The notes: generated by a model not told the origin, from the letters alone. Positions 52,832 through 58,471 are shown, numbered from the stretch's first letter. The stretch: 64,000 bases of DNA from Dictyostelium discoideum (GCA_000004695.1 CM000154.2:4928001-4992000); one strand, 5' to 3'. Program-made: numbers and translations.

Positions 52832-55800
52832 TTAATTAGGATGAATTAAAACATGAAATTTATTATTAAATTCACTTCTTAAATTATTTTTACTATCTTT
52901 AATTAATTGTAAAAAGTATTTTTCAGCTTGAATATTTGATAAATCTAATTGTAGCCTATCTCTTACTAATTGTTTACCTTGTTGAGATGGAATTAAATTT
53001 AAGAGTTGTCTTGAGTTATCTCTAAGGATATTATAAATTTTACAAGATAAAACTTTGAATTCTTCTTCTCTTGAACCTAACATAGCCACAATATCCTTTG
53101 TTAGAACGAATGGTGCCGTTTCACGTTCAAACATTAGGAATTTAGTTACTTTACCCAAAAAGTAACCAAAGTCGATATGCAAGAAATGACCAGTTGCACT
53201 AACCATTAAATTATCATTATGTCTATCATAGATACCCAATAGATAAGTTGCGACACAATAAACCGAACAAGACTTTATGAAAATATCAATATGTTGAGTT
53301 GAATTTGGAGGATTCTTTAATTTCAACCATTGTTCAATCGAGGGATACTTTGTGGTATCTCTCATGAAGTCTGCCAATGTCACCGAATCGGGCACCACTT
53401 CAATTAGACCTAAACCACTTTTTGCTGATAAACATTTGAATATTGTAAATTCACAATCTAGTCCATTTGATTTCAATATACTATCCATTAATGAGAATAG
53501 TTGAAGACAAAGTTCATCAGGACGTACATCATCCTTTTTAAATATGATTTTTGTATCATCAGCTTCCTTATCAATCGAAGAGAATACTAACCACAATGGA
53601 GCGGCATTACTATCTTTAACTTTTAATTCCTCCAATACAAAACTATTAAATTCTTGATATGGATGAGTTGGTAATGTAAATACTTTTGGTAATAATGATA
53701 ATCTAGTTTCAAAGATTTGTTTTTGTTTCTCTGGTTCCTTTATAATATCAATATTAATTTCTTTTAATAATCTTAATAATAAATATTGTGATACTAATGA
53801 TTGTCCAAATTTATTTGAATTTTGTTGTTGTTGTTGTTGTTGTTGTTGTTGTTGTTGTTGTTGTTGTTGTTGTTGTTCATTATTTGTTGTTGTTGTTGTT
53901 GAATTTATAACACCAATACCTAAACCTTCTAATATAATTTCCATTACTAATTTATAACGAATTATTATATGATTTTTATTTTCAAGTGGTGAAATTTCAT
54001 TTGAACATAACCAAAATACAGGTTGACCAATTTTTATAGGATTACAAATTGAACGTTTAACAATGAAATTAACCAAAGCAGAGTAATTGGTTGGTTCATA
54101 TTTTAACATTGATACTATTTGAGGTAAATAGAGTGATAATTGATTATCAGGCCATTGATTAATCGATTGAACACCAATCTCTCTAATTCTATCATCAATG
54201 AAATCACTTGACAATAATTCTAAACCAAACGATGGTGAGATCATTGGCCAATCTTTTAATAACCTATAAAGTTCAACTCTACTACTCCATGATAGAATCG
54301 AATAATTATATAACAATGTTGGTAATATATTTGGATAATTAATTTTACAATATTCTCTATTCTCCCAGAGTATAGATCTATCACTTTCATTAATATTTGA
54401 TCTTTCAAATTTCATTAAATTTTCAATTAAACTATTTAATTTATCATTTGATAATGATGTTGAAAATGATTGTTTTCTAAATGAATTTATTGATGATGAT
54501 GGTGATGATGATAATAGTGATAAATTTTTATTTGAACTAAAAGTAGTGGTAGTAGTAGAAGAAGAAGAAGAAGAAGAATTTGATGATAATAATGATGGTG
54601 AATTTTGATTTGAATCTTCTTTAAAATAAATTGAATTTGTTATATTTGGTATTGTACATTTTAAAATTATATTTTCATTTGATATAAAATTAACTGATGA
54701 TGAATGATTTGGTAATGTACCACGACTTTGATGTTGGTTCTGTTGTTGATTTTCTTGTTGTAGTTGTTGTTGTTGTTGTAGTTGTTGTTGTTGTTGTTGT
54801 ATATAAATTGGTTGTTGTTGTTCAAAAATTGGTAAAAGATTAATTTCAAAATTATTTTTTAATATTTTTTTCTTTTCAATTGATTGAATTTGAAATGGAT
54901 ATTGAGCTAAAAGTATATCCAGTGGCATTAATAATGGTGAAGTAGTTGATGAAATAGTTGATGATGATGAAGTAGTATTGGTAGTAGCAGAAGAGGAAGA
55001 AGAATTTGTCGTTGTTGTTGATGTAGAAGATGATTGACCAGGATTTAAAGTTGGTATTATTGTTGAAGATGATTCATTTGAATAAATACTTGTTAAAAAT
55101 GTACACTCTTTTGGAAAATCAATTAAATTTATATCAAAATATAATTTTTCATTCCATTCTAATATATTAACTTTTGAAGAAGTTTTATTCTTTGTTAATA
55201 ATAAATCACCATAATAAATTTGAATTTCAACATAAACTGGTACTTTAGTATAACTCGTTGGATAATAACGTTTAAGTATTGGTACTATATTTTCCACAGA
55301 TTTAATCTCAATGATTAGTTTAGACTCTGTCAAAGACTTTGGCAACGATACGGGCATTGAAACAGATGTCAAATCAATTAAATGCACACTTTGACTACTA
55401 TTTGAGTTATTGGATGGTTTGATATCGTATTGGTAATTGATCTTCTCTTGAAACTGTCTCCACTCTAATGAGTTCATTACATTTGGTATGAAGCAATACT
55501 TTTGAAGTGAGATATCAACAGTTTTCAATTTGAATTTCTTTCTAAACCTAACAGATTTATTAACATACACTGTATCCTTTAACTTTATCTTTAAATTGAA
55601 AATATGTTCCATTGAACCCAATATCTTTAATCCAAATCTATTTGACACATTCTCACCAAATAAATCAACTCTTTCATTCAATATCATTTCAAATGTTGAT
55701 TCAATACTAACCATATATTTTATAACTAATCCATTATGATAAATTATAACTTTTAAAAATTTTTCATTAAAATTATTAATTGATAATATTCCACCAATAT

Positions 55801-58471
55801 TTGAATTATCCTTTACTGATATTGATGATGTTGTTGTTGTTGTTGTTGTTGTTGCTGCCTTATTTGTAGGATTTATAGTTGGTGTTACTTTAATATTTAA
55901 AATTTTAATATTATTATTATTATTATTATTATTATTATTATTATTATTATTATTATTATTATTATTATTATTATTATTATTATTATTATTATTATTATTA
56001 TTATTATTATTATTATTATTATTATTATTATTATTAATATCATTATTATTAATAATTATTGCTTTTCTTTTATTTTGATTATTATTGTTATTATTATTAT
56101 TTTGATTATCAATTTGAATTGATTGATTTATTAAAGAATAATTTGAATTAATTAAATCAACTGATAATAAATTAAAAGATTTAAAAATGAATGGTTGAAT
56201 TTCTTTTAATAAACGTGACATTTTAAATCTAAAATAATTGATTTCATCATTTTGATAAGATACTCTAAATGTAGATGGTAATTTCTTTTGGTAATCAATT
56301 TCCAATGACGATTGAAATTGTTTATTCGATTGTGATGATGACATTGTTATTAATTGTGAACAATTGGAAATATCAATTGGTTTAGAATAATCTAGACACC
56401 TAAATGAGTTATTGAAAGCTGTTATCCATTCTCTATGTTGTTCAAAAGTGTCAACACTAAATAAATATGATAATAAATTGGGTGGTTGAGTAGTAGTAGT
56501 TGTATTTGGTGTTAATTGAATACAAAATTTTGCACTTGAATCACTTGTAATATTTAAAATGTAATTGGATAATATGATTTCAGATTTCGGTTGCTCACTT
56601 GACGAATTTGATTGAATTAAACTTGTTGCGGTTAATATGAAAAATCTTTTCTTCCAACCAATATTTAAATTTCTATTCTTTTTATAAAGTTCACCTGAAT
56701 AGATTATAGGTGTATCTGTTAATGATGCAAATATTTTTTTACCAATAATATTTGTTGATGTTGAGGTAGTTGATGAAATTGAACCATTTCTTTGTCTACC
56801 ATAATTTATATTATCAATATCATTTGATGATAGATAATAATCATTTTGTGATGAATGCTTTGATGATTGTGATGATGATGATGATTGTGATGATGTATTA
56901 CTACTGCTACTAATACCAAAAAATGTTGAAGGAAAATGAGAAGAGAAACTTGTGGATCTTTTCTTTTGTTGTTCTCTATTTTGTTGAGGAATTTGTCCCA
57001 ACATTTGATCTAATACATCTAAATTTATTTGATTAAGTGGTTTATTTGTTGTTGTTGTTGCCGTTGCTTGTGATGTGGTGGTGGTGGTAGTAGTATTGGT
57101 GGTAGTGGTTGAGACTACATTAAAGGGTTGTTGATATTGTAATGGCGGTGGTGGTTGATATTGTGGTTGTGGTTGTTGATATTGTAATGGTGGTGATATT
57201 GATATTTTTGGTGGTGATTTAGTTTGTTGATAAGTTAATGTTGATTTAATCTCTGTATTCCTCGCTGTAGGTTGATAAATCAACTGACCTGGCATATTGG
57301 GTGCTATCATATTATTTTTATAATAATTATTATTATTATTATTATTATTATTATTATTATTATTATTATTATTATTATTATTATTATTATTATTATTATT
57401 ATTATTATTATTATTATTATTATTATTACTTTTATTATTATTATTATTACTACTATTATTATTATTATTTTTAATAGTATTATTACTATTACTATTACTA
57501 TTACTACCATTACTATTATTACTATTATTACTATTATTAATGATATTGTTAATGTTATTATTATTTACATTAGTGTTACTATCATTGCTATTATTACTAT
57601 TATTATTATTATTATTATTATTTTCTTGTATTTGTGCTAATTTCCAATATTGATCGAGATCAGATTTTGATTTTCTTAAAGGGTGGTTTTTATTTCTGTG
57701 ACTGATAGAGGTGGAAGTTGAAGTGGAGGTGTTATTACTGATTATACCATTTGAATTTGGTGAATTTAATGTTAGATTTATATTAAAATTTTCAATTATT
57801 GATTTAGTAGTATTGGTAGATTTATTTTCAATACTATTGGTTGAATTTACTTTAGATGGTGATGGTGGCGATGGTGAATTGAATTGATTAAATCTATTTA
57901 TTACATTACTATTACTATTACTATTATTATTATTATTATTATTATTATTATTATTATTATTATTATTATTATTATTATTATTATTATTATTATTATTATT
58001 ATTATTATTATTATTATTATTATTATTATTTATGTTAATAGGAGAAGTAGAAGTAGAAGAAGATACTATATATAATTTTATTGATTTCACTTCATTTGGT
58101 TTGTTTAATGTAGTTTGTTTTAGTAGATTTCCAATTGATAAAACTTTTGTCCAACCTACTGATTTAATAATTTGACTACTATCGTTCTCTGATAAACTTA
58201 ATAAAAAGTTATTTCCTATACTATTATCTGTTACTAAAATTTGATTTTTTAATTGTTGAATAGTGGTATCATTCTTTATATTTAATGATATCGTTTTTTC
58301 ACTATTCGGATATTTTATCTTTTTTTTTTATTTTTATTTTATTTTTTTATTTTTTTTTTGTAATAATAAATAAAATAAATATTAGTAAAAATTTGTAAAA
58401 TTGGCGTTTTTAAAAATTGATGAAAAATTTTTAATTTTTAATACACATACAATACATGTATAATTATCCAT
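52832..58471 (-). CDS. Class I phosphoinositide 3-kinase catalytic subunit of about 1835 aa. The N-terminus is unusual: a ubiquitin-like/RA-like segment, long N/Q-rich linkers and a PH domain precede the RBD, C2, helical (PIK) and PI3K/PI4K kinase domains. Model: complement(join(58451..58471,52832..58318)).
   Basis: Kinase catalytic/activation loop GIYDRHNDNLMV...HIDFGYFLG. Helical-domain strings (LLSWSSRVELYRLLKDWP...). C2 (VPVYVEIQIYYGDLLLTKNKTSSKVNILEWNEKLYF). RBD-like (FLKVIIYHNGLVIKYMVSIES...). PH (YSGELYKKNRNLNIGWKKRFFIL...HREWITAFNNSF). A 21-nt first exon ATGGATAATTATACATGTATT is followed by GTATGT...AAAAAG|ATAAAATATCCG, in frame. Which pik paralogue this is I cannot say. Confidence 0.82.

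Follow-up and report, generated by a model that had tools for sequence, protein, structure and literature searches.

We analysed a 64,000-nucleotide (nt) stretch of the Dictyostelium discoideum genome (GCA_000004695.1 CM000154.2:4928001-4992000, hereafter the window), with emphasis on the gene located on its minus strand between positions 52832 and 58471. It is very probable that this is pikH, a two-exon gene encoding a phosphoinositide 3-kinase (PI3K) catalytic subunit of 1835 amino acids (aa) that is known so far only in dictyostelids. The locus, as judged from its sequence and its neighbours, is D. discoideum DDB_G0291093 and is not itself new, as pikH has already been named, knocked out and studied. 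Our data concern the 7-codon exon by which the gene starts, the N-terminal beta-grasp (ubiquitin-like) domain that this exon helps to encode, and the place of the kinase among the PI3K classes.

Gene structure, first exon and locus identity

The window has a GC content of about 22% and contains long poly-Asn open reading frames (ORFs). The start of the pikH gene was modelled from the following elements.

58451..58471, minus strand: exon 1, a 21-nt micro-exon (ATGGATAATTATACATGTATT) encoding MDNYTCI, with the start ATG at 58471-58469
58319..58450, minus strand: intron 1, 132 nt, GTATGT...AAAAAG, phase 0
52832..58318, minus strand: exon 2, 5487 nt, a continuous ORF with no further introns and the stop codon at 52834-52832
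58274..58318, minus strand: first 45 nt of exon 2 (IKYPNSEKTISLNIK), 20% GC, encoding the rest of strand beta1, a turn and strand beta2
58055..58471, minus strand: N-terminal beta-grasp (ubiquitin-like) domain, aa 1-95, split by intron 1

The spliced coding sequence comprises 5508 nt and encodes 1835 aa with one terminal stop. The N-terminus of this model is MDNYTCIIKYPNSEK, exon 2 begins with ATAAAATATCCGAAT (IKYPN), and the C-terminus ...HVLIHPN is kept in the orthologues. The first in-frame ATG of exon 2 is at codon 344, and the frame of exon 1 has none upstream of 58471. The probability that an open frame of 1828 codons arises by chance at this composition is about 1e-76. The GC content of intron 1 is 9.8%, far under the 19-20% of the flanking coding sequence.

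Comparative support for the micro-exon and for the acceptor at 58318 is strong, because D. purpureum has such an exon, the stand-alone paralogues of the N-terminal domain have the same exon structure, and homology runs across the junction. A preliminary description of this stretch had proposed this first exon and this acceptor, and its coordinates proved to be exact. The D. purpureum orthologue begins with MDYICIITLPNGRTININ, and its first exon of 18 nt (MDYICI) has the same position and phase; its locus reads ATGGATTATATTTGTATT, then GTAAAT, a 70-nt intron, AATAG and then ATTACT. The gene of the stand-alone relative P0138 in the dictyostelid assembly GCA_054859205.1 (L002 3001-3466) reads ATGGCCGATTACAATTGTATT, followed by an intron GTATGT...TTTAG and ATAAAATTACCAAATGGC. 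It thus has the same 21-nt exon 1 and the same phase-0 intron as pikH, and the starts of exon 2 are nearly alike. When another relative, P0137, was compared with the window by tblastn, the alignment started at 58309 (E 1.6e-9). Exon 1 supplies the first half of strand beta1 in the beta-grasp, and in the orthologues the homology of this domain includes the exon-1 residues.

The assignment to DDB_G0291093 is based on the neighbours identical to strain AX4 together with the adjacent locus number DDB_G0291071, on the PH-PI3Ka-kinase Pfam set carried by the orthologues, and on the offset of 15 residues between the catalytic lysine and its published number, K1586. The neighbours concerned are given below.

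747-2510, minus strand: sulfate adenylyltransferase, an ORF 100% identical to AX4 XP_635463.1 / Q54F74
20671-22021, minus strand: FAD-dependent monooxygenase, with an 8-nt exon 1 at 22021-22014 (ATGAAAGA) and exon 2 from 21937; its 424-aa product is identical to AX4 XP_635410.1 / DDB_G0291071

The window protein has the PH-PI3Ka-kinase architecture of PikH, with the catalytic IIFK lysine at residue 1601, or at 1586 if an acceptor further downstream is used. The D. purpureum orthologue (58% identity) has the Pfam set PH, PI3Ka and kinase, and the same set is found in further orthologues from Polysphondylium violaceum, Acytostelium subglobosum and one EukProt species. A 2026 preprint names the PikH gene DDB_G0291093 and treats it as an 'atypical PI3K' (10.64898/2026.05.11.724005). 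It was also reported as 'type-1-like' and without a Ras-binding domain (RBD) (PMC3255550), and pikH was recovered in a chemorepulsion screen by restriction enzyme-mediated integration (PMC9073555).

The published kinase-dead PikH allele is K1586A (10.64898/2026.05.11.724005), and this number bears on the two other ways in which the protein might start. If the micro-exon were spurious, translation would begin at codon 344 and the ubiquitin-like segment would be an untranslated leader. In AT-rich intergenic DNA, a chance ATG may indeed have an in-phase GT behind it, and our gene model rests on comparative evidence. However, 76 open and conserved codons precede the first start codon of the long ORF, the orthologues conserve the N-terminal domain including the residues encoded by exon 1, and the exon structure recurs in the stand-alone paralogues. 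Moreover, K1586 needs about 1585 preceding residues, which is impossible from M344, where the lysine would be K1258. The public model must therefore already hold an upstream ATG exon, and we regard a spurious micro-exon as exceedingly improbable. It is less far-fetched, although still unlikely, that the mRNA uses, as the main or an alternative isoform, an in-frame AG located 45 nt downstream. This AG lies at the 3' end of the 45-nt segment (...AATATAAAG followed by AAT, with the boundary between 58274 and 58273), and the resulting protein of 1820 aa would begin with MDNYTCINDTTIQ (MDNYTCI joined to NDTTIQQ...). Such splicing would drop IKYPNSEKTISLNIK and shift the catalytic lysine from 1601 to exactly 1586; an in-frame AG exists at precisely the offset of the published number. 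Nevertheless, the 45 nt are exon-like, having the 20% GC of the downstream exon and not the 9.8% of the intron. Four orthologues and four paralogues conserve the residues that they specify, and the paralogue homology detected by tblastn begins within them. P0138 is spliced at the equivalent proximal site, its exon 2 starting with ATAAAATTACCAAAT, and in D. purpureum the corresponding downstream position lacks an in-frame AG. Use of the downstream site would also delete beta2 and half of beta1 from a confidently modelled fold, and an exact look-up in the protein collection gave no entry for the 1820-aa sequence. The acceptor at 58318 is accordingly preferred for the transcript. As a conjecture from the residue numbering, we infer that the public AX4 model may use the downstream acceptor and so cut 15 residues from the beta-grasp. 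If this is true, synthetic full-length constructs would carry a broken beta-grasp domain, and the N-terminal domain would be incomplete in the full-length rescue constructs that have been published.

In D. purpureum the gene is interrupted by two more introns, each about 70-80 nt long (L001 5768-5838 and 7567-7646), one within the C2 and the other within the kinase domain. They are absent from D. discoideum pikH, which indicates intron loss or gain within the genus. A further PikH-like gene model, P0140 (1208 aa), starts within helix alpha1 of the beta-grasp domain (MGQFKQQVIVAAN...) and stops within the kinase domain. Both the micro-exon and the beginning of exon 2 are probably missing from it, and its 3' end is truncated too.

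Domain architecture and placement among the PI3K classes

From the N-terminus, the protein consists of the beta-grasp, about 450 aa of low complexity, a pleckstrin homology (PH) domain, a linker block, poly-Asn, a degenerate RBD, and the C2, helical and kinase domains. The features downstream of the beta-grasp are as follows.

57656..57679, minus strand: LRKSKSDL, a basic Ser motif conserved in the aligned D. purpureum and Acytostelium proteins
56939..56965, minus strand: (K/R)KRSxSF(S/T), a motif of the low-complexity region present in five of five orthologues
56408..56704, minus strand: PH domain, aa 546-644, Pfam PF00169 at 50 bits (cut-off 25.1) and E 4.6e-13
56198..56302, minus strand: conserved linker block EIDYQKKLPSTFRV...FRFKMSRLLKEI, aa 680-714, in five of five orthologues, with no family match
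55445..55762, minus strand: putative degenerate PI3K RBD homologue, aa 860-965, from orthologue Pfam scores and hhalign
54605..55345, minus strand: PI3K-type C2 domain, aa 999-1245, with Ser/Thr- and Gln-rich inserts, from a clade profile, PF00792 and AlphaFold2 (AF2)
53921..54427, minus strand: PI3K helical (PIK accessory) domain, aa 1305-1473, Pfam PF00613, E 4.2e-31
52991..53551, minus strand: PI3/PI4-kinase catalytic domain, aa 1597-1783, Pfam PF00454, E 2.8e-44

The PI3K-type C2, helical and kinase domains are present in the order of class I enzymes. The preliminary description had spoken of a canonical RBD-C2-helical-kinase cassette; its order was confirmed, but the RBD cannot be called canonical, since the window copy has no Pfam match. 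Likewise, among the profiles that it had listed, PH, PI3Ka and PI3_PI4_kinase were matched, whereas PI3K_rbd and PI3K_C2 were absent from the window protein at E<=1. For the RBD block, no PI3K_rbd match was obtained in the window copy even at E<=10, the D. purpureum copy gave no Pfam match, and a search of the PDB sequences with the RBD clade profile returned noise only (PLK4, E 0.2). The orthologue RBDs scored 26.1, 23.3 and 17.8 bits against PF00794, so that two of them pass the cut-off of 22, and hhalign of the block with five aligned bona fide RBDs gave 93.7% (E 1.9e-7, 81 columns). The PikH RBD thus appears to be homologous but degenerate, because it is detected by profile-profile comparison and in the orthologues and not in the window copy itself. 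PikH would keep this remnant although the literature describes the RBD as lacking. With regard to the C2 domain, the clade profile matched the C2 of p110gamma in the PDB (E 4.2e-7) and also those of the beta, delta and alpha isoforms. After removal of the Ser/Thr insert, the window C2 scored 27.8 bits with PF00792 (cut-off 26.4). In the AF2 model, the strands of the C2 sandwich had a confidence score (pLDDT) of 83-89, and the top 50 Foldseek matches were all class I p110.

The catalytic core is intact, with the IIFK lysine K1601 (53539-53537), DRHNDN at aa 1705 and DFG at aa 1723, which is consistent with the published kinase-dead result. The kinases of the PikH clade carry IFKK-DDVRPDE in place of IFKxGDDLRQD (53480-53545), with the Gly deleted and the Gln changed to Pro, and GIYDRHNDN in place of the near-invariant GIGDRHNDN (53200-53230).

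The PH domain is present in all orthologues, and its score lies well above the gathering threshold, so the preliminary description was right in recognising it. The closest solved PH domains are those of PLEKHA4/PEPP1 (E 3.5e-5), then PLEKHA7 and PLEKHA5 (to 8e-4). They have a similar basic motif between beta1 and beta2 (WKRRWF against WKKRFF in PikH), but at about 25-30% identity their lipid specificity is not transferable, and in the PikH gene the PH domain is fused to a lipid kinase. The motif K-Xn-(K/R)-X-R-hyd-hyd, where hyd is a hydrophobic residue, is present in the PH domains of the window, D. purpureum and P. violaceum proteins (WKKRFF/WKKRYF). In two of four orthologues, P0003 and P0004, it is shifted (WKRC.., WKRQ..). 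This shift and the normal dynamics of phosphatidylinositol 3,4,5-trisphosphate (PIP3) in the mutant speak against the positive feedback through PIP3 that had been suggested for this domain. Membrane pre-localisation by the PH domain, also suggested there, may plausibly occur. The separation of the domains by poly-N/Q was borne out as well, with long tracts lying between the conserved blocks. The LRKSKSDL motif also occurs, unaligned, in P. violaceum and P0003, and a third short conserved motif of the low-complexity region, where conservation is otherwise absent, is PNxPGQLIYQP. LRKSKSDL and (K/R)KRSxSF(S/T) look like candidate sites for basophilic kinases of the PKA/PKB type.

As to its class, PikH is best labelled a divergent dictyostelid lineage beside class I/II and away from Vps34, as suggested by sequence comparisons of its catalytic half. 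When the helical-kinase region was compared with the PDB, PI3KC2alpha was the best match (239 bits), p110gamma and p110alpha scored about 213 bits, and no Vps34 was found within the top 60 matches. In a bootstrapped neighbour-joining tree of 279 kinase-domain columns, rooted on phosphatidylinositol 4-kinases (PI4Ks) and including one Vps34 sequence, the PikH clade was recovered at 100% and joined class I and II against the Vps34-like sequence at 87%. Kinase identity was 31% to the Vps34-like kinase and 36-43% to the class I-like kinases. The activation loop of PikH, GKVTKFLMFERETAPFVLT (HIDFGYFLGKVTKFLMFERETAPFVLT), has the class I/II length and the core R-E-x-A-P-F-V-L-T. Relative to residues K941, K942, K948 and R949 of p110alpha, the R949 equivalent is kept, V and T stand at the K941-K942 positions, and E replaces K948. 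The preprint also finds an activation loop without the class I basic box (10.64898/2026.05.11.724005). The grouping of the kinase with class I/II, and not with Vps34, changes which lipid products merit testing.

PikH resembles the dictyostelid class I-like PI3Ks of the PikA/PikB/PikC type (P0005, P0007-P0009) in the RBD-C2-helical-kinase order, in a long low-complexity N-terminal region and in the absence of a p85-binding adaptor-binding domain (ABD). These enzymes give the top PikH paralogue scores of 206-241 bits, but the kinase identity to them does not exceed the range mentioned above. Their RBDs score 38-92 bits in Pfam, whereas the window PikH has no match; their activation loops, unlike that of PikH, carry a basic box and the sequence K/Q-R-E-K/R; and they have neither a PH domain nor an N-terminal beta-grasp. 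The class II enzyme PI3KC2alpha, the best-scoring solved structure for this region, shares with PikH a loop that keeps the Arg and lacks the class I Lys box. The RBD of PI3KC2alpha is not known to be a strong Ras binder. On the other hand, PikH has no C-terminal PX or second C2 domain: no PX match was obtained, and the protein ends 52 residues past the Pfam kinase match, whereas P0011 has a PX domain. The tree clusters the two class II sequences together and apart from PikH.

The preliminary description had called the protein a class I PI3K. In that case it would make PIP3, be under the control of Ras by way of a canonical RBD, and use its PH domain for positive feedback by PIP3. The domain order, the paralogue scores, the fit of the window W-K-K-R-F-F to the K-x-R signature of 3-phosphoinositide binding and the 'type-1-like' label in the literature (PMC3255550) speak for it. 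We nevertheless consider a true class I enzyme improbable, and the label was not upheld. The clade falls outside class I and II in the kinase tree, the loop has no Lys box, the best PDB match is a class II enzyme, and the PH motif is unconserved in two orthologues. The window RBD fails Pfam, in line with the RBD reported as lacking (PMC3255550), and PIP3 dynamics are normal in pikH- cells (10.64898/2026.05.11.724005). A relationship to Vps34 (class III), with production of phosphatidylinositol 3-phosphate on endosomes, seems less likely again. It would agree with the phagocytosis phenotype and with the full-length guide tree of the preprint, whose Fig. 1C sets PikH nearer Vps34 (10.64898/2026.05.11.724005). 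It would also agree with the Tyr at DFG+1 (HIDFGY), as in Vps34 and PI4Ks. But the kinase tree separates PikH from the Vps34-like sequence, the identity to that kinase is lower than to the class I-like kinases, and the PDB matches do not include Vps34. The activation loop is of the class I/II type and 5 residues longer than that of Vps34, and PikH has a PH domain and an RBD homologue, which Vps34 lacks. The Vps34-like placement was therefore rejected on the tree, the PDB scores and the activation-loop alignment.

The N-terminal beta-grasp domain and a proposed function

In the predicted structure, the N-terminal domain has a beta-beta-alpha-beta-(alpha)-beta topology and is structurally similar to domains of the ubiquitin family, which supports the ubiquitin-like segment proposed in the preliminary description. 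With the N-terminal profile, ubiquitin was found among the PDB sequences at E ~1, which is not significant. The model indicates a generic beta-grasp fold that is not specifically ABD-like. Compared with the ABD of class IA p110, the PikH domain shows no sequence similarity, lies about 760 residues from the RBD with the PH domain between them, and has stand-alone paralogues, which the p110 ABDs are not known to have.

When the N-terminal profile was searched exhaustively with HMMER, the stand-alone relatives P0137-P0139, of 98-106 aa, were found, together with P0136 (272 aa, Cys-rich), in which the beta-grasp domain is at the C-terminus. The domains of P0136-P0139 all begin M[AT]DYNCI(I/F)(K/V)LPNG. 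None of these proteins has a Pfam family, and no stand-alone paralogue was found within the 64-kb window. The PikH N-terminal domain belongs to a dictyostelid beta-grasp family without prior annotation; the pikH papers cited here do not mention an N-terminal beta-grasp, and the preprint gives neither a length nor domains for PikH. The stand-alone paralogues are obvious candidate partners of PikH. A bolder proposal, to which we give only a modest chance, is that the domain may found a dictyostelid-specific family and dock in the manner of PB1 or ABD domains, perhaps as a partner of the small paralogues and in place of adaptor regulation; the public AX4 model may also truncate it by 15 residues.

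It was reported that pikH- cells have a selective defect with reduced phagocytosis, which is rescued by wild-type PikH and not by K1586A (10.64898/2026.05.11.724005). Motility, chemotaxis and development are normal in these cells, as are the cAMP-stimulated dynamics of PIP3 and phosphatidylinositol 3,4-bisphosphate (10.64898/2026.05.11.724005). We offer a mechanism that is tentative as a whole and for which we would put the chances somewhat below even. PikH would be an active lipid 3-kinase that needs no adaptor of the p85/p101 type. Its PH domain, aided by the C2 domain, would place it on endocytic or phagosomal membranes, and the beta-grasp may mediate protein-protein interaction or docking, for which the stand-alone paralogues are candidate partners. 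Its substrates are presumed to be phosphatidylinositol (PtdIns) or PtdIns4P rather than PtdIns(4,5)P2, because the activation loop keeps the equivalent of R949 but lacks the Lys box. Such a preference would fit a phagocytosis defect that depends on kinase activity while PIP3 dynamics in the null cells are normal.

Besides the guide tree of the preprint, several observations weigh against our interpretation of the gene and its product. Exact look-up of the 1835-aa and the 1820-aa model in the protein collection gave no entry, and no PikH of the D. discoideum group was among the returns of the homology search, although other AX4 proteins are present there. The tree holds a single Vps34 sequence, and its node that puts PikH outside class I and II has a bootstrap of 50% only. 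The AF2 model of aa 850-1250 told us nothing of the RBD, where pLDDT stayed below 50. The structure of the beta-grasp is that predicted for the D. purpureum orthologue, and the substrate preference, the PH ligand and the beta-grasp partner are those that we infer.

Other genes in the window

The preliminary description had noted a very short first exon in the FAD monooxygenase gene as well. Its intron at 22013-21938 comprises 76 nt (GTAATA...TTTAG), and splicing restores MKE joined to GIEKIKVLIIGGGLGG, a Rossmann motif, whereas the ORF alone spans only positions 113-347 of the Pfam profile. The spliced protein is the one deposited as XP_635410.1, so this micro-exon is real and already publicly annotated. 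From these two genes it had been concluded that ORF-based starts in the window are systematically too short. In fact, 9 of the 24 ORFs of >=200 aa in the window begin at a non-ATG codon; this is an ordinary effect of introns, which disrupt a prokaryote-style ORF list.

On the plus strand, adjacent ORFs at 31991-40054 contain leucine-rich repeats, then Roc and COR-A/COR-B, and are followed by an ORF of 1778 aa with a non-ATG start. They probably represent a single gene of the Roco family that introns or frame changes have split. On the minus strand, Pfam matches to DNase II, an arylamine N-acetyltransferase-like protein, PQ-loop, a RhoGEF fragment and a CENP-L-like protein were obtained for ORFs at 6348-7712, 22352-23380, 24079-25191, 29312-30028 and 40619-41566. 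Several of these ORFs start at TTG, and first exons are therefore expected upstream of them.

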